From IMG/VR virus record IMGVR_UViG_3300042897_000742, positions 1 through 64,000 of that record: 64,000 bases of DNA; one strand, given 5' to 3'. The stretch is from a virus. Made by a program: the position numbers and the translations under genes. Numbering within the stretch: position 1 is the first letter of the stretch; the number at the start of each line of letters is the position of its first letter. This document shows, piece after piece, positions 3,292 through 28,660 of this stretch. The notes under the pieces are model-generated. The model was not told where the DNA came from. It saw only the letters and a program-made list of their open reading frames with translations, and searched no databases.

Positions 3292-4089
3292 TGCTTTTTC
3301 AATTGTAATCTTTGGCCAAACAGTTAATAGACTTCTAGGAGAAGCATTATAAACTTCAATACCTTTTGTTTTAAGTAGATCTGCAAGTACTCTAAATCCT
3401 GGTACAAACTGATCTCTATAAATATCATCACCAGTTACAGGTACTGGGTATCCATCATGATGATGTCCTCTTCTTCCATCATTACCCATATCATATCCTA
3501 ATAAAATAATTCTTTTTGCTCCTAAATGATATGCAAGATTAATTGCAGCATAACCACTATTATTTCCATGAGAAAGAGTATCTTTTGATTCTTCTAAACC
3601 AAATTTATTTCCTCTTCTTAAAATCTTAATATCTCCTACATATGATGGATGATCTCTTATAGTATATTTAGGCCCTTTGAAATTATCAATTTCATTTTTC
3701 ATCCATGAATATACACGTGAGTCTGTCCAATAAAGTATGTTAGCCTGAGGAAAAGATAATAGAGATTTATTAATTGCAATAGTTTTTTTACCATAGAGAG
3801 CATTCCAATTAAAGTCCATAAGTGATGGACCTCCACCAATAATAAAAACAGTTTCTCCTGCCAAGATAGGATCAACTTTACTTATTGGTCTTTTTGTAGC
3901 TTCTCCTGTTGTAGTAATGCTAAGATTTCTTCTCTGTACGATTGGTACATTATCATTACTTATAGTTATTCTACCTATCCTATCATCAGAAGATCCCTTT
4001 TTTACCACGGTTGGTGGTAATCCTTTATTCTCTTTAATTACCGGGACTCTTCTATCATTCCCTAGTATTTTTCGTACTCTTCTTATCAA
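3277..4089 (-). CDS. DUF115/Maf-like (MptE-like) putative glycosyltransferase
   Basis: Motifs IIGGGPSL, IAIN, GNNSGYAAINLAYHLGAKRIILLGYD, NASP; the only clear minus-strand gene; GATAAATA motif upstream on the minus strand. Confidence 0.75.
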   Translation of the reverse strand: MIRRVRKILGNDRRVPVIKENKGLPPTVVKKGSSDDRIGRITISNDNVPIVQRRNLSITTTGEATKRPISKVDPILAGETVFIIGGGPSLMDFNWNALYGKKTIAINKSLLSFPQANILYWTDSRVYSWMKNEIDNFKGPKYTIRDHPSYVGDIKILRRGNKFGLEESKDTLSHGNNSGYAAINLAYHLGAKRIILLGYDMGNDGRRGHHHDGYPVPVTGDDIYRDQFVPGFRVLADLLKTKGIEVYNASPRSLLTVWPKITIEKALTFK

Positions 4090-10367: not shown

Positions 10368-10988
10368 ATGAAAGAAGAGTCTAAACATAAATTTAGAGAC
10401 AGCCTTGGAGACTTATTAAATGATCTACCTGATGAGGTACCTGGCTTAGAAGATACACCACAATTACCTAGAGTTAAATCAGAAGGAACGCAGGCTGTTG
10501 CATTACAAACCGCAAAGAACAAGGCCCAGCGGGTTATGAATAATCTTCTTAAGTTTTATTTAAGTGAAGAGATTATTGAGGAGCATGAATACATTAAAGT
10601 TAAAGCAGAGCTAGATGAGTATGCCCTAGGCATGCTTATTCGCCAAATGCAAAATAGTGAATCTGCTATTTCAACTTTAATGGACACCATTAATGAAGGT
10701 GATGTTTCGCCTAGAATGTTTGAAGTACTTAGTGACTTACAGAGAACTCTCTTGGATATCATAAAAAGCCAAACAATGTACATGGTTGCAATTGAGGAAA
10801 ATGCGAAAAAATTATCCAGAGATATTGATGTTTATCACGGTGGTGCTAATAATGTAGATAATAATCAAAAGAAAGGTGGAAACTCTGGAGTTAAGGCAAG
10901 AGGAACTAAAGATCTTATGAGGGCCTTACAAGATAGTATTAACGAAGAAGATATACAAGATGTCGATGGAGATCAATCTGAAGAATAA
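10368..10988 (+). CDS. Probable terminase small subunit
   Basis: Helical protein with SPRMFEVL motif, two genes upstream of TerL. Confidence 0.55.
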   Translation: MKEESKHKFRDSLGDLLNDLPDEVPGLEDTPQLPRVKSEGTQAVALQTAKNKAQRVMNNLLKFYLSEEIIEEHEYIKVKAELDEYALGMLIRQMQNSESAISTLMDTINEGDVSPRMFEVLSDLQRTLLDIIKSQTMYMVAIEENAKKLSRDIDVYHGGANNVDNNQKKGGNSGVKARGTKDLMRALQDSINEEDIQDVDGDQSEE

Positions 10989-11235
10989 CTATGTTCTTAC
11001 AAAAGAGATCATAGAAAAAGAAAAAGTATCTAGCGGTGGAATTATACTTCCATCCGAAAAATACAACCGTAAATGTATTGTAATTAAGTCCTCGTCTGAA
11101 GAAGTTAGAGAAGGACAAACAGTTATAAAAACAATAGGCAAGGGTACGATTTTTAGAATAGATGGTGAAGAATACGAAGCTTTACATGAAAATCATATCT
11201 TAGGCATAATAGAAGAAGATGGCACAGAAACCTAG
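10960..11235 (+). CDS. groES: GroES-like co-chaperonin
   Basis: SSGGIILP mobile loop, DGEEY...E..ILGI. Confidence 0.8.
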   Translation: MSMEINLKNNYVLTKEIIEKEKVSSGGIILPSEKYNRKCIVIKSSSEEVREGQTVIKTIGKGTIFRIDGEEYEALHENHILGIIEEDGTET

Positions 11236-13036
11236 AGCAGAAAGCGCAGGATTTGATTTTAAGATTGGAGCTGCAGAAGAATCCTTTTCATGGACATCTG
11301 AAAGGGTAGAGCAGCTTATGCTTGCATTAGAAGAAGGTTATAAACCTAAAGCAACACCTTTTTATGAAGGGAATCCTAATTTAAGAAAAGGGAATATTGT
11401 TTTTAACTATACGCCTCATGAAATTAGGGAGATAAAGAAATGTGCAACTGATATTGTTTATTTTGCCAATACTTATTGTACTGTAATGACCGATCATGGT
11501 TTACAGACAATTAAGTTAAGAGGTTATCAAGAAGAGATGTTAAGGCAATTTCAAAAAGAAAGATTTAATTGTTGCTTAGCATCTCGTCAGATCGGTAAAA
11601 CAATATGTTCATCAATTTTTATTGCATGGTATTCATTATTTAATTTTGATAAAAATTCACTTGTACTTTCTAACAAAGGTGCAACTACTCGTGAAATTAT
11701 TGATAAAGGAAAAACGATTCTTGAACACTTACCATTCTTTTTAAAGCCAGGAGTTATTAAGTGGGATGTATTTAATTCAAAATTTGATAACGGCTGTCGT
11801 ATTATTGGACAAACTACAACAAAGAAAGCTGCGATTGGTTTTACCATTCATTTGCTATTTATGGATGAGTTTGCTCACATCCCACAAAACTTTGTGGAAA
11901 CATTCTATGAAAACGTTTATCCTACTGTATCTGCTTCTTCAAATTCAAAGGTAATTATTACAAGTACACCTAATGGCTTCAATAAGTTTTATGATATTTA
12001 CTCGTCAGCTGAAAAGGGATTAAACGAATACTCACCGTTTAGAGTAGATTGGTGGGATGTACCTGGCAGAGATGAGGCATGGATGAGACAAGAAGTTGCT
12101 AACCTTGGTTCAGAAGAAGCATTTAACAGACAATACGGAAATCAGTTCATAGCAAGTTCTTCTCTATTACTTGGTGCAGATAGTCTTAAAAAACTTCAGC
12201 AGAATCAAAAGGAATTTGTTCACAGAGAGTTGCCTGAGTTTGAAGATGAGAGTATTGAATATGAAGGTTTATTATGGGATCCTGATTTTAGTCTTGATGA
12301 GATTGAAGAAGATACTAATTATTGGGTATTTTCAATTGACATCGCAGAAGGAAACGGTGGAGACTATTCAATTATAAATATCTTTAAGATTGAAATTATG
12401 GATGAACAGGATTGGAAAAGAATAACATCCCCTGGATCATTCGTAGACTTTTTTAGACTTAGACAGGTTGGAAGATTTAGAAGTAATGAACATACTATTG
12501 AAGAATTCGCAAAAGCCGTTTATATCTTAGCATTTGATATGTTTCATTCAGAAAACGTAAAAATGATAATTGAATGGAATATGTTTGGGGGTGAATTAAT
12601 TAAGAGACTTGAAACTGTATTTCCTCAAAGAAATGAATTTGATGAAGAGATGGTAGTTAAGTTTAAACATCGTATTGATGCAAGAACCAAAAACTTTGGT
12701 CTTAAGATTAAAAAAGATAATAAACCTATCTTTTGCCAAAACTTTAAGAAATACATAACTCAAAATCGGATTATCATTAAAGATAAGAAAACTGTATATG
12801 AAGCATCTACGTTTGGTAAGATGCCTAATGGTAGTTATGCAGGTCAATTAGGTCATGATGATCTTATAATGACTAGCATAAATAGTTCAGAATTTTTCTT
12901 TACTTTAGACTTCTCTGACTTTGTCGAAGAGATTTATGATACTGTTGATGAATCATTACAAATTAAGATTGATGAGATCTTAGAAAAGGACTCTAAGGGA
13001 GGAAATCTTAATTACGATATTTATGATCTTGTGTAG
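11219..13036 (+). CDS. terL: Terminase large subunit (T4 gp17-like)
   Basis: LRGYQ, SRQIGKT, MDEFAH, ITSTPNG, DIAEGNGGDYS, HDDLIM. Confidence 0.95.
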   Translation: MAQKPRAESAGFDFKIGAAEESFSWTSERVEQLMLALEEGYKPKATPFYEGNPNLRKGNIVFNYTPHEIREIKKCATDIVYFANTYCTVMTDHGLQTIKLRGYQEEMLRQFQKERFNCCLASRQIGKTICSSIFIAWYSLFNFDKNSLVLSNKGATTREIIDKGKTILEHLPFFLKPGVIKWDVFNSKFDNGCRIIGQTTTKKAAIGFTIHLLFMDEFAHIPQNFVETFYENVYPTVSASSNSKVIITSTPNGFNKFYDIYSSAEKGLNEYSPFRVDWWDVPGRDEAWMRQEVANLGSEEAFNRQYGNQFIASSSLLLGADSLKKLQQNQKEFVHRELPEFEDESIEYEGLLWDPDFSLDEIEEDTNYWVFSIDIAEGNGGDYSIINIFKIEIMDEQDWKRITSPGSFVDFFRLRQVGRFRSNEHTIEEFAKAVYILAFDMFHSENVKMIIEWNMFGGELIKRLETVFPQRNEFDEEMVVKFKHRIDARTKNFGLKIKKDNKPIFCQNFKKYITQNRIIIKDKKTVYEASTFGKMPNGSYAGQLGHDDLIMTSINSSEFFFTLDFSDFVEEIYDTVDESLQIKIDEILEKDSKGGNLNYDIYDLV

Positions 13037-24279: not shown

Positions 24280-24507
24280 ATGATACGAGAAAAACAAAAA
24301 AGAACTGCGCCTATTGTAATCGACCTCACAGGTCCTGATGGAAATGCATTCGCACTTATGGGTTATGCAAAGAATTTTGCAAAACAACTCGGATGGGAAC
24401 GCGAAAGATCACAGAACCTAATCACTGAAATGATGAGTGGGGATTATGATAATCTCATTCAGGTATTTGATCGCGAATTTGGTAACTTTGTAATTTTAGA
24501 AAAATGA
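24280..24507 (+). CDS. Hypothetical phage protein
   Basis: IDLTGPDGNAFALMG...MSGDYDNL; start moved to the ATG at 24280. Confidence 0.65.
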   Translation: MIREKQKRTAPIVIDLTGPDGNAFALMGYAKNFAKQLGWERERSQNLITEMMSGDYDNLIQVFDREFGNFVILEK

Positions 24508-24806
24508 AAATAGACATTGAAAAACTTAAACAGATTGAAGAAGCCCTCGGGCAATTTGAGGTAGGTCGTATCTTCGGCGGCGGTAATCATAATTACCTTC
24601 GCTTTGGGTATTGGAGACCAACCGATTGGAAAACTCTTCAAGAAATCCTTGGTCCTTCTATCGTGGTAGAAGAAGACTCTGATTACGATGATGACTGTGG
24701 ATGGAAGTATTCCTATGTTCTATACGATCGCATGGAATGGGATATGATTCAAAAGAATCGTCGTGAACAAATGGAATCTTGGAGAACTCCAGTAAACAAT
24801 CGTTAA
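24504..24806 (+). CDS. Hypothetical protein
   Basis: ATGA overlap with the upstream stop. Confidence 0.6.
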   Translation: MKIDIEKLKQIEEALGQFEVGRIFGGGNHNYLRFGYWRPTDWKTLQEILGPSIVVEEDSDYDDDCGWKYSYVLYDRMEWDMIQKNRREQMESWRTPVNNR

Positions 24807-24820
24807 CCGCGATTATATAA
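24794..24820 (+). promoter_or_regulatory. Putative middle promoter for tmRNA
   Basis: AAAC-N17-ATATAA. Confidence 0.65.
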
Positions 24821-24829
24821 ATAAAGGTA

Positions 24830-24846
24830 CGTTCTTTAACATATTG
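24830..24846 (+). promoter_or_regulatory. rrn-type boxA antitermination element
   Basis: CGTTCTTTAACATATTG; near-identical copy at 25652-25668. Confidence 0.65.
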
Positions 24847-25230
24847 GGGGTGACCAGGTTTTGACGGTTAAGCTGAAATTAGGTTACTGATGCAAGCAGG
24901 ATTAGATGGAAATCCTTAAACACCTATCACACAATAAAAGGCGAAGAGAAATCTTCATTCACCTGGGAAGACGCTATGGCTTTCGTAGGTGCTGATTACG
25001 CTGTAGCAGCCTAGTCAGTCTCGCACTCATCGTGAGGTTTCAAAAAGAATGAGAATACAAGGTTTCGTTCAGAGGGCTACCTTATTACAAGTGAACTCGA
25101 CACAGTTATTGGTAACAATGTCAAAATAGGAACCATTTATTTTGGCCATTAAGAAAAATGGCCTAAGCTTGTGAACGAGGGATTTAGGTTCCTTAGTCGG
25201 ACATGGGTTCGAATCCCATCACCTCCACCA
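24846..25230 (+). ncRNA. ssrA: tmRNA
   Basis: Acceptor stem GGGGGTG/CACCTCC-ACCA with G3-U70; T-arm GGGTTCGAATCCC; tag ORF 24940-25014 GEEKSSFTWEDAMAFVGADYAVAA*. Confidence 0.95.
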
Positions 25231-25233
25231 AAA

Positions 25234-25288
25234 AGGATGCATACAGCAACTTTGGACTAGACTTGTAAACTACAACCCAATGCATCCT
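25234..25288 (+). ncRNA. Unknown small RNA, ACAGCAA scaffold with Thr(UGU)-like anticodon loop
   Basis: AGGATGCA/TGCATCCT closing stem, ATACAGCAA, loop CTTGTAA; paralogue at 25925. Confidence 0.6.
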
Positions 25289-25294
25289 GATTCT

Positions 25295-25367
<73 letters not shown>

Positions 25368-25385
25368 CAAAATCTCACATATGTG

Positions 25386-25412
25386 AAACAAACACTATGT
25401 GTGTATATATAA
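25386..25412 (+). promoter_or_regulatory. Putative middle promoter for the leader ORF
   Basis: AAAC-N17-ATATAA, 22 nt before the leader ATG. Confidence 0.65.
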
Positions 25413-25434
25413 TTAACAAATAAAAACAATTTCA

Positions 25435-25530
25435 ATGCAACTGCACGGATGTACATATTGGATTCTTAGTAATGTGGAGAAGAATTTTCCACAAGCGGAT
25501 TCAATTACACCAAGTCCAGGCAGGAGCTGA
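25435..25530 (+). CDS. Putative attenuator leader peptide containing all 20 amino acids
   Basis: MQLHGCTYWILSNVEKNFPQADSITPSPGRS*, double TGA stop, A-rich 5' leader, located between a promoter and a terminator. Confidence 0.75.
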   Translation: MQLHGCTYWILSNVEKNFPQADSITPSPGRS

Positions 25531-25553
25531 TGAGATAAAACACTTACATAATC

Positions 25554-25590
25554 AAGCCTCCTGGATAAAAAATTCCGGGAGGCTTTTTTT
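25554..25590 (+). terminator. Intrinsic terminator / attenuator upstream of the tRNA array
   Basis: AAGCCTCCTGGA-TAAAAAAT-TCCGGGAGGCTT-TTTTT; the 5' arm is complementary to leader nt 25515-25531. Confidence 0.85.
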
Positions 25591-25596
25591 ATGGGT

Positions 25597-25630
25597 CTCT
25601 TTCAGAAATAGATTGAATGAGTTATATTTG
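25597..25630 (+). promoter_or_regulatory. Putative host-sigma promoter of the tRNA array
   Basis: CTCTTTCAGAAAT-N12-TTATATTTG, same layout as 28413-28446. Confidence 0.65.
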
Positions 25631-25651
25631 TTTAGAATAGAATTTCAAATT

Positions 25652-25668
25652 CGTTCTTTGACATATTG
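25652..25668 (+). promoter_or_regulatory. rrn-type boxA antitermination element
   Basis: CGTTCTTTGACATATTG, 10 nt before the first tRNA of the array. Confidence 0.65.
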
Positions 25669-25678
25669 AGGTACCAAC

Positions 25679-25764
25679 GGAAAGATGGTAGAGTTGGTTG
25701 ATTACACCGGTCTTGAAAACCGGCATACCGCGAGGTATCGGGGGTTCGAATCCCTCTCTTTCCG
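25679..25764 (+). tRNA. tRNA-Ser(TGA)
   Basis: CCGGT-CTTGAAA-ACCGG, long variable arm. Confidence 0.95.
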
Positions 25765-25771
25765 CTTAAAT

Positions 25772-25842
25772 TGCCCTCTCGTCTAATGGCAGGACATGTG
25801 GTTTTGGTCCACAGTGTAGAGGTTCGAATCCTTTGGGGGCAA
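25772..25842 (+). tRNA. tRNA-Gln(TTG)
   Basis: TGTGG-TTTTGGT-CCACA. Confidence 0.93.
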
Positions 25843-25847
25843 CATAT

Positions 25848-25922
25848 AGGGAAGTAGCGTAGCCCGGTTATCGCGCCTGGTTTGGGACCAGGAGATCGCA
25901 GGTTCGAATCCTGTCTTCCCTA
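25848..25922 (+). tRNA. tRNA-Pro(TGG)
   Basis: CCTGG-TTTGGGA-CCAGG. Confidence 0.95.
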
Positions 25923-25924
25923 CA

Positions 25925-25979
25925 AGGATACATACAGCAAATTTTATCAAACTGCAACTTTGAAGCCAAAACGTATCCT
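25925..25979 (+). ncRNA. Unknown small RNA, ACAGCAA scaffold with Cys(GCA)-like anticodon stem-loop
   Basis: AGGATAC/GTATCCT stem, ATACAGCAA, TCAAA-CTGCAAC-TTTGA. Confidence 0.6.
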
Positions 25980-25985
25980 GTATTT

Positions 25986-26058
25986 GCCTCTGTAGCTCAG
26001 TTGGTAGAGCTACTGATTTGTAATCAGTGGGTCGTAGGTTCGAATCCTATCGGAGGCT
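25986..26058 (+). tRNA. tRNA-Thr(TGT)
   Basis: ACTGA-TTTGTAA-TCAGT. Confidence 0.95.
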
Positions 26059-26070
26059 CAAACATTATTT

Positions 26071-26144
26071 GGTCCGTTCGTCTAATTGGTTAGGACATCT
26101 CCCTTTCACGGAGAAGCTTACGGGTTCGATCCCCGTACGGACTA
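26071..26144 (+). tRNA. tRNA-Glu(TTC)
   Basis: TCTCC-CTTTCAC-GGAGA. Confidence 0.93.
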
Positions 26145-26150
26145 CAACAT

Positions 26151-26225
26151 TGCGGGGTGGACTGGAGATGGTTCCAGCTCGGTCTCATAAGCCGAACCAC
26201 ATGGGTTCGATTCCCATCCCCGCAA
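26151..26225 (+). tRNA. tRNA-Met(CAT), initiator-like
   Basis: TGCGGGG/CCCCGCA acceptor; TCGGT-CTCATAA-GCCGA. Confidence 0.88.
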
Positions 26226-26332
26226 CAAAGGTGGTATCTAGACGAAAATGAAATTCCTGCTGTGAAGTCGACTTAATCAGCATATTCAGAAGTAGAAATG
26301 AAGGATCGCAAATCTTTCGCCACCCTCTTATT

Positions 26333-26409
26333 GGCTCGTTAGTAGAGATGGTTACAATGTCGCCCTGTCACGGCGAAGGTCACGGGTTCGAGTCCCGTAC
26401 GGGCCGCCA
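26333..26409 (+). tRNA. tRNA-Asp(GTC)
   Basis: TCGCC-CTGTCAC-GGCGA; encoded CCA. Confidence 0.95.
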
Positions 26410-26481
26410 AAAAATGCCGAGGTTAATGCATAACCTAAAGTAACACGTACGGTTACACAGTAGGAAGGCTACCTACACTTT

Positions 26482-26555
26482 GGGGGTATAGCTCAGTTGG
26501 CTAGAGCATCTGCCTTGCACGCAGAGGGTCGTGGGTTCGAATCCCTCTACCTCCA
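26482..26555 (+). tRNA. tRNA-Ala(TGC)
   Basis: TCTGC-CTTGCAC-GCAGA; G3-U70. Confidence 0.95.
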
Positions 26556-26559
26556 CTAA

Positions 26560-26632
26560 GATCTCGTAGCTCAGTTGGTAGAGCAATACACTTTTAATGT
26601 ATGGGCCGCGCGTTCGAGCTGCGCCGGGATCA
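26560..26632 (+). tRNA. tRNA-Lys(TTT)
   Basis: ATACA-CTTTTAA-TGTAT. Confidence 0.9.
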
Positions 26633-26732
26633 CAAAAAAATCGTACATCATAGTTTTCCCGTTTAGGATGTAGCTATAAGATGTAAATGTGAAAGGCGCA
26701 ATCGCAGTAGGTTAAGCGATATCCTACAACTT

Positions 26733-26813
26733 GCCGAAGTGGTGGAATGGTATACACGCTGGTCTTAGGAACCAGTGCCTAACGGCTTAAGGGTTCGAGT
26801 CCCTTCTTCGGTA
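26733..26813 (+). tRNA. tRNA-Leu(TAG)
   Basis: CTGGT-CTTAGGA-ACCAG, variable arm. Confidence 0.95.
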
Positions 26814-26818
26814 CTAAT

Positions 26819-26896
26819 GCATCTTTAGCTCAGTTGGTTTAGAGCGTTACCCTTACAAGGTAAATGTCGGTGGTTCGAATCCATCAAGGTGCACCA
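26819..26896 (+). tRNA. tRNA-Val(TAC)
   Basis: TTACC-CTTACAA-GGTAA; encoded CCA. Confidence 0.95.
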
Positions 26897-27018
26897 AGAG
26901 ATATAGTGAAGCTGTATGATATGGTCTTAATCCCGCTGACTGTCAAAAAGGCATTAGGAGATTCAGATGTGTTGATTATATCACAGAATGCCCGAAAGAC
27001 CCGAAGTATCTCTTTTAT

Positions 27019-27101
27019 TGGAAGGTGGGTGAGTGGTTAAAACCGGCAGACTGTAAATCTGCTCTCTTCGGAGTACGGCGGTTCGAATCCGTCCCTTCCA
27101 A
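27019..27101 (+). tRNA. tRNA-Tyr(GTA)
   Basis: GCAGA-CTGTAAA-TCTGC, variable arm. Confidence 0.95.
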
Positions 27102-27106
27102 CATTT

Positions 27107-27180
27107 GGACCTTTAGCTCAGTTGGTTAGAGCATCGGACTCATAATCCGCAGGTCGCAGGTTCGAGCCCTGCAAGGTCCA
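27107..27180 (+). tRNA. tRNA-Ile2(CAT, lysidine type) or elongator tRNA-Met
   Basis: CTCATAA loop; GGACCTT/AAGGTCC-A acceptor typical of bacterial Ile2. Confidence 0.85.
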
Positions 27181-27185
27181 CGTTT

Positions 27186-27257
27186 AGTCGATTAGTTCAA
27201 TGGATAGAACACTTGACTACGGATCAAGAGATAAGGGTTCGAGTCCTTTATTGACTA
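27186..27257 (+). tRNA. tRNA-Arg(ACG)
   Basis: CTTGA-CTACGGA-TCAAG. Confidence 0.93.
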
Positions 27258-27262
27258 CTAAT

Positions 27263-27338
27263 GGTGATGTAGCTCAGTCGGTAGAGCAAAGGACTGAAAA
27301 TCCTTGTGTCGGCGGTTCGATTCCGTCCATCACCACCA
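27263..27338 (+). tRNA. tRNA-Phe(GAA)
   Basis: AAGGA-CTGAAAA-TCCTT; encoded CCA. Confidence 0.95.
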
Positions 27339-27418
27339 AGTAATAGGTAAGCATCTAAGGGGTCTCCCATGTAATATTGGGGCGTGTCTAACCCAAAGCC
27401 TCTGCTTATTACTTTTAT

Positions 27419-27490
27419 TCCTCGGTAGCTCAGAGGCAGAGCACATGACTGTTAATCATGGGGTCGGGATATCGTAATTCCCCCGGGGAG
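27419..27490 (+). tRNA. tRNA-Asn(GTT), atypical T-loop
   Basis: CATGA-CTGTTAA-TCATG; T-arm GGGAT-ATCGTAA-TTCCC. Confidence 0.85.
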
Positions 27491-27548
27491 CAAAAACGCT
27501 TAATAGAACAAAGTACAAGTTCAGAACAGGGTGCGGGTCCTGTGACAT

Positions 27549-27622
27549 TGGAATATAGCTCAGTTGGTTAGAGCATTCGTCTGATACGCGAAGGGTCGGC
27601 AGTTCGAGTCTGCCTATTCCAA
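27549..27622 (+). tRNA. tRNA-Ile(GAT)
   Basis: TTCGT-CTGATAC-GCGAA. Confidence 0.93.
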
Positions 27623-27627
27623 CACAT

Positions 27628-27702
27628 GGTGGTTATAGCTCAGTTGGTTAGAGCATCTGATTGTGGTTCAGAAGGTTGTGGGTTCGACTCCCATTAATCA
27701 CC
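27628..27702 (+). tRNA. tRNA-His(GTG)
   Basis: TCTGA-TTGTGGT-TCAGA; G-1:C73. Confidence 0.95.
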
Positions 27703-27708
27703 CATAAT

Positions 27709-27779
27709 GGCACTATGGCCGAGTGGTTAGGTGGAGGTCTGCAAAACCTTCTACACAGGTTCGATTCCTGTTGGTGCCT
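27709..27779 (+). tRNA. tRNA-Cys(GCA)
   Basis: GAGGT-CTGCAAA-ACCTT; U73. Confidence 0.93.
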
Positions 27780-27787
27780 CAATAAAC

Positions 27788-27860
27788 GCGTCTGTAGCTC
27801 AGCTGGTAGAGCACTGGTCTCCAAAACCAGGTGTCGGTGGTTCGAACCCATCCAGGCGTG
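27788..27860 (+). tRNA. tRNA-Trp(CCA)
   Basis: CTGGT-CTCCAAA-ACCAG. Confidence 0.95.
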
Positions 27861-27876
27861 CAAATACTTAAAATGA

Positions 27877-28326
27877 ATGAAGGTGTTTAGAAAGACAGAT
27901 GGAGTTAAGGTTAATGTGATTGATCACACCCTTGAGCAGTTAAAGAATTACCCACATGCATCGATTCACATTGGAACCGATTCACAAAATCATGGTGATG
28001 TGACTATGTACAGTACAGTAATAGCATATCGCTTTGGATCGTCAGGTGTTCATTATATCTTTACTAAACAAAAGATGCCAAAAATCACTGATATGTGGAC
28101 TCGTCTTTGGAAAGAAGCTGAGATGAGTATTGAAACGGCAGAATGGCTTACACAACAAATTAATGTTAAGGTTCAAATTGATATGGACTATAATGGAGAT
28201 GAAGAGCATAAATCTCATAGAATTATTTCCGCGGCAAAAGGTTGGGCAAATTCTTTAGGTTATAAAGTAAATGTAAAACCTAACGAACAGATTGCAACTC
28301 GTGCAGCTGATTATTGCTGTAGATAA
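27877..28326 (+). CDS. RNase H-like YkuK/DUF458 family protein
   Basis: IHIGTDSQ, RLWKE, IDMDYN, KP...A..AAD. Confidence 0.85.
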   Translation: MKVFRKTDGVKVNVIDHTLEQLKNYPHASIHIGTDSQNHGDVTMYSTVIAYRFGSSGVHYIFTKQKMPKITDMWTRLWKEAEMSIETAEWLTQQINVKVQIDMDYNGDEEHKSHRIISAAKGWANSLGYKVNVKPNEQIATRAADYCCR

Positions 28327-28327
28327 A

Positions 28328-28412
28328 GGAAGGTTACCCAAGTGGTGAAGGGGGCAGTTTGCTAAACTGTTAGGTCGGTAACGGCGCGAGGGTTCAAATC
28401 CCTCACCTTCCG
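28328..28412 (+). tRNA. tRNA-Ser(GCT)
   Basis: GCAGT-TTGCTAA-ACTGT, long variable arm. Confidence 0.93.
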
Positions 28413-28446
28413 CTCTTTCAGAAATCATATCTATGTATTATATTTG
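28413..28446 (+). promoter_or_regulatory. Putative host-sigma promoter
   Basis: TTTCA-N18-TATATTTG. Confidence 0.6.
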
Positions 28447-28462
28447 AATAAATAGTTTAGGT

Positions 28463-28660
28463 ATGAAAAAAGATTTTATTTGGGTACGCAAGGTTATCCT
28501 AAACAAAGATAACAAGTCGATTCATTATGATTCGCTTGTTAATCTTATTTTACTGTTTTCAGACAAATGGCAACATTTGGAAAAGGATCCGCGATTTAAG
28601 GAAGCCTATATTTCATACAAGACATTTTTGAAACTTACCCTTAGACATCAATATAATTAA
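28463..28660 (+). CDS. Hypothetical protein
   Basis: ORF directly after the promoter. Confidence 0.55.
   Translation: MKKDFIWVRKVILNKDNKSIHYDSLVNLILLFSDKWQHLEKDPRFKEAYISYKTFLKLTLRHQYN

Follow-up and report, generated by a model that had tools for sequence, protein, structure and literature searches.

A leader open reading frame spelling all 20 amino acids and a candidate ribosome-mediated attenuator in front of a phage tRNA array

The window analyzed here is a 64-kb part (positions 1 to 64,000) of a 93.9-kb IMG/VR lake-phage record (IMGVR_UViG_3300042897_000742) with a GC content of about 33%, and the element in question is a short leader open reading frame (ORF) followed by an intrinsic terminator in front of a large array of transfer RNA (tRNA) genes. 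All features of the locus lie on the plus strand. A transfer-messenger RNA (tmRNA, 24846-25230) and a tRNA-Gly(gcc) gene (25295-25368), both recognized by ARAGORN and Rfam, form an upstream stable-RNA unit (24846-25368), and a gap of 310 nucleotides (nt) separates it from the array of 21 tRNA genes (25679-28413, assigned by the same two tools), which represents 19 amino-acid specificities, with Gly encoded upstream. The gap holds the leader ORF (25435-25530, ATG start, TGA stop) and the terminator, while no terminator lies between the upstream unit and the leader. The original prediction, made from the letters alone, had read this arrangement as an attenuator through which a shortage of almost any tRNA would open the array, and its description of the parts could be confirmed: translation and residue counting gave a 31-codon ORF with all 20 amino acids, in which the first 10 residues are all different and 19 types (all but Arg) occur in the first 22 codons, and 21 tRNA genes follow on the same strand.

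The terminator is also real. A terminator scan placed it at 25554-25592 (stem-loop 25554-25585, -21.9 kcal/mol), with a 12-bp stem, an 8-nt loop and a T run. The complementarity claimed between the end of the ORF and the terminator 5' arm exists (-17.9 kcal/mol), but the two registers described for it are one composite duplex, in which 25508-25536 pairs with 25546-25567. The first of these segments, delimited by duplex energy and termed region 2, overlaps the last codons and the stop codon of the ORF and would act as the 5' strand of an antiterminator; the second, region 3, consists of the terminator 5' arm and the four preceding bases, and by folding could pair with either region 2 or the 3' arm (region 4). 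Region 1, at the start of the ORF (25435-25456), is complementary to 25508-25532 within region 2, and the two close a rod-like self-hairpin of the ORF (25437-25527) that was found in minimum free energy and alignment folds and carries a stable apical hairpin at 25457-25506 (-15.0 kcal/mol). The duplex energies were -14.9 kcal/mol for 1:2, -17.9 kcal/mol for 2:3 and -21.9 kcal/mol for 3:4, and the energies of the trp attenuator are similar. Measured against shuffled upstream sequence, the pairing of 25508-25536 with 25546-25567 (core 25514-25525) had a z of about -2.1 and a p of about 0.03.

Folding of the RNA up to the terminator 5' arm and loop (25425-25572) with a 28-nt ribosome footprint masked gave the geometry that had been proposed. 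About nine antiterminator pairs are expected while the A site is at any of codons 2-23; the number is lower for codons 24-26 and drops to zero for codon 27 and all later positions up to the stop. In other words, the antiterminator 5' strand is free in the first of these ranges and occluded once a ribosome nears the stop codon, and antiterminator and terminator are mutually exclusive pairings. With the 3' arm present, the terminator always wins at equilibrium, so the choice of the switch must be kinetic, as in classical attenuators.

The residue diversity of the leader is extreme for this genome. Among 61,160 stop-free windows of 22 residues, taken from all six frames of the 93.9-kb record, the leader is the only one with 19 residue types, and windows of 31 residues that contain all 20 were found at three loci only. 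Under a null drawn from the base composition of the ORF itself, the probability of all 20 types in 31 residues is about 5e-4, and that of at least 19 in the first 22 about 3e-5. Among 6,197 distinct short ORFs from all fetched loci, a diversity probability of 2e-3 or less was reached by the variants of this leader in its own clade and by one ORF of a related phage, L043, only. Part of a rival explanation bears directly on these values, namely that the hairpin is a plain terminator of the tmRNA/tRNA-Gly unit, with the array driven by a downstream promoter and boxA and with the ORF diversity an accident of a GC-balanced spacer. Another all-20 window does lie in the nearby non-coding tmRNA/tRNA region, so a balanced composition raises diversity, yet the composition-matched null still leaves 3e-5 to 5e-4. 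Since diversity alone could be a lucky find in a very large scan, independent evidence was sought.

The codons of the leader point to the array behind it. The downstream tRNAs read 26 of 30 leader codons, as against a share of 0.69 in phage genes (p 0.023), and the Leu codons of the leader, CTG and CTT, belong to the CTN box of the sole Leu tRNA in the array, whereas the commonest Leu codon of the genome is TTA. The start of the ORF resembles a gene start of this phage: the 25 nt before its ATG are 60% A without any G, which is normal here, as phage genes mostly have no Shine-Dalgarno site (11 of 80 have one) and start behind A-rich, G-poor leaders.

Phage contigs retrieved through the YkuK gene of the array show the same layout, i.e. 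tmRNA, tRNA-Gly, gap and 21 tRNAs, in four lineages with protein identities of 98, 87 and 81%. Mean column identity in the clade alignment is 85% for the gap, which puts its conservation on a level with that of the tRNAs, and the ORF is kept at 31 codons with all 20 residues in seven of seven nucleotide variants. In L010, the most distant member, Lys and Phe were each lost at one codon and regained at another. Region 2 is invariant in the clade except for one synonymous change at a bulged antiterminator base, and the core of the terminator 5' arm is invariant, whereas the 3' arm varies; L010 has one compensatory G-C to A-U change in the terminator, and the apical hairpin shows a few pair-preserving changes.

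Such nucleotide-level conservation, together with the apical-hairpin changes, could also be expected if the 90-nt rod and terminator were a stand-alone small RNA, acting in trans or as a processing or pause structure, with the reading frame tolerated and no sensing involved. The strong fold of rod and terminator (z -7.5) and their own conserved upstream block (AAAC-N17-ATATAA, see below) would fit this explanation as well, and trans-acting small RNAs derived from attenuators are known, for instance rnTrpL (PMC6614838). On the other side, no Rfam family was found for 25369-25678 at E values up to 1, nor for the leader of any relative, and nhmmer with a clade profile found no leader homologue outside the four lineages. 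Equivalents elsewhere have no common sequence or obvious fold, yet they have the ORF, the pairing between ORF end and terminator, and the match to the tRNA set. We therefore consider a stand-alone small RNA unlikely as the whole explanation. It would be compatible with an attenuator, because the terminated leader RNA could have a second role. Over 24500-28600 Rfam gave tRNA, tmRNA and weak chance matches only, with no signal recognition particle (SRP) RNA, 6S RNA, Y RNA or other small-RNA family; SRP RNA, 6S RNA, a degenerate tRNA and an RNase III site were also considered for the rod and dropped, as no tool supported them.

More distant phages carry units of the same anatomy written in other sequences, as a search upstream of their tRNA arrays revealed. 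In L043, whose YkuK protein is 72% identical, a positionally equivalent gap of 309 nt ends in the same boxA-like motif and holds a different ORF of 27 codons with 19 residue types, the last codons of which (GGCCGGGT) are perfectly complementary to the terminator 5' arm of this phage, which belongs to a different terminator. All strong terminators were surveyed in 25 representative sequences (the genome record and 24 fetched loci); 17 of them stand a short distance before a tRNA, and 14 of these follow an ATG ORF of 24-44 codons. Among the upstream 110 nt, the segment that forms the best duplex with the 5' arm belongs to the last third of this ORF and stops 1-31 nt short of the ORF end. The z of this duplex against shuffles had a median of -2.1 in 12 non-redundant units, compared with -0.32 in the 19 terminators of these sequences that have no short leader ORF in front (Mann-Whitney p 3.7e-6). 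The terminator sequence differs between families and the partner segment changes along with it, which is covariation at the family level. A second short ORF of L134 (3921-4019; 32 codons with 19 residue types), which together with a weak terminator stands before tRNA-His in mid-array (3921-4041), had no significant antiterminator pairing and was excluded from the 12-unit tests. In L134, L135, L146 and L128 the terminator is followed by the first tRNA after 9-20 nt, which leaves no room for a promoter, so that a gating role of the attenuator is clearer there. A further leader/terminator/boxA unit, at 8959-9110 of L138, is homologous to the unit before tRNA-Leu(taa) in L144.

These units also bear on the possibility that the ORF is a micropeptide gene, functional in its own right, ended by its own terminator and without a part in tRNA control. 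The ATG stands in a gene-like A-rich context, the frame is retained in all variants, and the homologous leaders of L138 and L140 differ by an in-frame codon insertion, all of which a peptide gene would show. However, the peptide sequence differs from one phage group to the next, and what persists is position, terminator pairing and tRNA-set match; moreover, a peptide of nearly every residue has, as far as its translation can be read, no hydrophobic or charged pattern; a micropeptide gene is accordingly the most improbable of the explanations weighed here.

The residues of the leaders match the tRNA sets behind them. For the 12 units, each leader peptide was compared with the same-strand tRNAs behind it, and the fractions of downstream specificities covered were 19/19, 19/20, 17/17, 15/15, 13/14, 13/13, 5/5, 16/20, 5/5, 8/8, 7/7 and 6/6, the leader of the window covering 19 of its 19. 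Against peptides drawn from the protein composition of each phage, this coverage gave a Fisher combined p of 8.5e-10 over the 12 units, a value that overstates their independence for a reason given below. The mean Jaccard index between leaders and their own arrays was 0.695, compared with 0.563 +/- 0.027 for permuted pairings, and was reached in none of 100,000 permutations; moreover, leaders in front of more specificities contain more residue types (rho 0.71, p 0.009). Leaders with all 20 residues precede near-complete sets in the window, L134 and L135, and one with 19 does so in L043. Partial arrays, in turn, have leaders enriched in the amino acids of their own tRNAs. The leader of L146 takes 16 of 27 residues from the amino acids of its own array, against 25% expected (p 2e-4), with a stretch of 12 consecutive residues (FQHTRFWFTQPT) that all come from the seven amino acids of the eight following tRNAs, and with an Arg codon, CGT, that fits anticodon ACG. 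For L151 and L128 the corresponding counts are 15 of 32 (p 1.7e-3) and 15 of 27 (p 0.017), and the codons ACA, AGA/AGG, TTA, CTA, ATA and GGA of the L128 leader are those of its six elongator tRNAs. Since leaders match arrays across units, the all-20 leader of the window is what a general rule would lead one to expect and no oddity.

The surroundings of the attenuator are of interest for the question of which transcripts would pass through it. The AAAC-N17-ATATAA block at 25386-25412 is present and conserved in the four clade lineages, but the promoter role ascribed to it found no support, for it matched none of the promoter consensuses testable in the scan, and it is retained here as a putative leader promoter. 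By comparison, the warning that a host-type promoter lies behind the terminator was borne out. At 25598-25630 a bipartite motif of promoter type, TCTTTCAGAAAT-N12-TTATATTTG, coincides with a sigma-70-like site in the promoter scan; it has two exact matches in the 64 kb against 0.03 expected, the second copy (28414-28446) standing right after the last tRNA and before topoisomerase genes, and it probably represents a promoter class of this phage. Its end fits TAnnTTTG, which we take to be the -7 box of Bacteroidota. This box is weakly enriched on the plus strand of the window (48 against 36.7 +/- 6), so that the label of a host-type promoter rests mainly on the exact repeat. To judge from these motifs, the 21 tRNAs probably have a promoter of their own.

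A boxA-like element (CGTTCTTTGACATATTG, 25651-25668) follows about 10 nt before tRNA-Ser, and a copy with one mismatch, found by direct reading, precedes the tmRNA (24828-24845). In related phages the motif (C)GTTCTTT(A/G)ACAT recurs in front of the tmRNA and, in many arrays, of the first tRNA, at a distance of some 10-25 nt, with copies at L043 1587-1600, L126 5105-5118, L135 8137-8150, L138 3099 and 9087, L140 4310, L144 2715, and L142 5602 and 6115. It resembles what we take to be the E. coli rRNA boxA, and like the boxA of rRNA operons, CGTTCTTT(A/G)ACATATTG heads stable-RNA units, standing before the tmRNA and before tRNA-Ser. Because the conserved motif resembles the boxA of rRNA operons, these phages may, by analogy, recruit Nus-type antitermination for these units. 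The motif is a neighboring element and not the attenuator.

A downstream promoter-type motif and a boxA-like element are what the plain-terminator explanation introduced above would lead one to expect, and it is also favored by the absence of a terminator between tRNA-Gly and the leader and by RNA contigs that run through from one to the other. Nevertheless, a plain terminator would hardly require a spacer conserved as strongly as the tRNAs in four lineages, an unrelated and equally diverse ORF with its own antiterminator pairing in the same gap of L043, or a leader/array match across 12 units, and terminators that do not stand behind a short leader ORF show no such upstream pairing. We regard this explanation as quite improbable.

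The leader region occurs in RNA preparations and is contiguous there across the terminator. Contigs spanning both the leader and the terminator were present in four RNA libraries, which belong to three studies; they occupy 25315-25643, 25315-25627, 25443-25776 and 25440-25899, reach 37 nt or more beyond the terminator on either side, and in two cases extend into tRNA-Ser. In two of the libraries the protein genes flanking the stable-RNA region on both sides have no cover, which argues for RNA instead of carried-over DNA. Leader variants in the RNA runs are mostly synonymous (GAG to GAA, CAA to CAG, GGC to GGT), and one Ser-to-Arg variant still leaves all 20 residues present.

According to the pairing found in relatives, the match of leaders to arrays and the masked folding, which together support the core of the original prediction (a translated leader, with stalling at many codons opening the array), it is reasonable to suggest, with a probability of roughly 70%, that the element is a working ribosome-mediated (leader-peptide) transcription attenuator between the tmRNA/tRNA-Gly unit and the 21-tRNA array. 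We infer translation of the ORF, coupling of ribosome and polymerase, the direction of the switch and its physiological trigger. Anticodon nucleases or starvation, which the original prediction put forward as triggers, and the negative feedback that it added, would be conceivable parts of such a scheme. Transcripts arriving from upstream, i.e. from a tmRNA promoter and perhaps from the AAAC-N17-ATATAA block, would carry the 31-codon leader, in which region 2 could pair alternatively with region 1 or region 3. A fast ribosome that reaches the last five codons or the stop would cover region 2, the terminator would form, and transcription would end at about 25590. A ribosome stalled in codons 2-23 would leave region 2 free to capture the 5' arm while the 3' arm has yet to be transcribed, and RNA polymerase would continue into the tRNA genes. 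As codons 2-23 spell 19 amino acids, almost all of them in codons read by the array, slow decoding of almost any codon class would raise tRNA synthesis, and the leader could act as a general sensor of decoding capacity instead of a sensor for a single amino acid. Extra tRNAs would thus probably be made when ribosomes read slowly, and the attenuator would add a conditional share to the basal tRNA output from the separate downstream promoter motif. A wider proposal, on which we see the odds as about even, is that tRNA-carrying phages regulate their tRNA sets by leaders written in the amino acids of those tRNAs; an all-20 leader would be the limiting case, a single decoding-capacity sensor that switches a complete backup set on once a host tRNA of any kind runs short, is cut by an anticodon nuclease or stays uncharged, and down again on recovery.

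Several observations weigh against reading the element as an attenuator of the array, or narrow what it could do. In the partial transcript without a ribosome, the antiterminator state (-37.2) is marginally more stable than the full rod (-34.3), so the untranslated state may, unlike that of trp, read through, and termination may require active translation to the stop; if so, the element would be a sensor of translation capacity in general. Arg appears as AGG at codon 30, in the ribosome-covered zone, and this codon is not read by the phage tRNA-Arg(acg); likewise, the GGA codon of the leader is not read by the phage tRNA-Gly(gcc). The promoter-type motif and the boxA-like element lie between the terminator and the first tRNA, so that the array can be transcribed without passing the attenuator; the tRNA genes of the window thus need not depend on read-through, and the attenuator would gate only part of the tRNA output here. 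The RNA contigs give no ends, strands or single molecules, and depth is not comparable before and after the terminator. Many of the compared leaders start with MKT or MKN and the units may share ancestry, and the combined P values therefore overstate independence. A leader homologue in L138 (8959-9033) precedes a 115-codon ORF instead of a tRNA, and either the tRNA was replaced or such a unit could also gate a protein gene. Within the clade, random placement of the 14 internal changes of L010 retained an open all-20 frame in 0.9% of trials, but with the mutated positions fixed the retention is 20%, which is not unusual and makes this test weak on its own; in the same phage the 19 types of the first 22 codons fall to 17, with all 20 still present in 31. 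Finally, about six synonymous and at least 11 non-synonymous ORF changes in the clade give no clear synonymous excess, and a structured RNA may explain the conservation of the ORF at clade level equally well.

In anatomy, the proposed attenuator is close to the leaders of trpL, hisL, leuL, pheL and the multivalent thrL and ilvL of enterobacteria, in which a short leader ORF is followed by an intrinsic terminator. As in these systems, the alternative hairpin strand overlaps the end of the ORF, 1:2, 2:3 and 3:4 pairings alternate, the energies are of the same order, and the regulatory codons lie upstream of the antiterminator strand. Attenuators of amino-acid operons control biosynthetic enzymes, whereas tRNAs would be controlled here, and instead of a run of a single codon the leader has one or two codons for nearly every amino acid. 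The phage also differs in its likely Shine-Dalgarno-independent Bacteroidota host, in an untranslated state that may read through and in the promoter motif behind the terminator. T-box riboswitches are comparable in coupling the state of tRNA to the choice between terminator and antiterminator in a leader RNA. In their case the tRNA is bound directly, by way of a specifier codon and the conserved T-box sequence; they lack a translated ORF, their targets are synthetase and amino-acid genes, and no T-box leader (stem I, specifier loop and T-box sequence) was matched by Rfam in 25369-25678 at E values up to 1. A further parallel is Anabaena PCC 7120, where a cryptic long tRNA operon on a megaplasmid of the bacterium, an accessory and nearly complete array that is expressed more strongly under impaired translation, is induced under translational stress (PMC8421152) and repressed by TrcR (PMC10272220). 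That operon is under a protein repressor, and neither paper mentions a leader peptide or attenuation.

Literature searches, including full-text searches, returned no report in which a leader peptide or attenuation governs tRNA arrays of phages or bacteria. What appears to be new is the use of tRNAs as the regulated genes and the many-codon design of the leader, since the logic and anatomy are those of known leader-peptide attenuators. Codon usage, host shut-off and tRNA-targeting defence all bear on the question of why there are tRNA genes in phages and at what time they are expressed. If our reading is true, phages would measure the state of the host translation apparatus and respond to it, classical attenuation would extend from metabolic operons to the decoding machinery, and an all-20 leader would be a naturally occurring, compact reporter of tRNA availability as a whole. 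That leaders spell their arrays is, furthermore, a simple and falsifiable prediction for hundreds of phage genomes.

Searches of GenBank phages with the region and with the YkuK gene turned up no close relative, only tRNA matches and proteins of less than 37% identity. Two gaps within the array (26230-26324 and 26420-26476) received no assignment from ARAGORN or Rfam. The tag predicted for the tmRNA of the window is unusually long, with 24 residues and the ending YAVAA, and that of the relative L010 has nine residues. In the tRNA region of the 270-kb relative L135, a full-length GOLLD RNA (Rfam RF02032, 257 bits) lies at 10839-11250, next to tRNA-Gly. The YkuK/DUF458 RNase H-like gene (27877-28326) is located inside the array, between tRNA-Trp and tRNA-Ser(gct), and has homologues of about 66% identity in assemblies of Flavobacteriaceae and other Bacteroidota; these homologues, together with the A-rich gene starts without Shine-Dalgarno sites, make a Bacteroidota bacterium the likely host. 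Dozens of phage contigs show this gene linked to tRNA arrays, and its involvement in the processing or repair of tRNAs may be worth considering.

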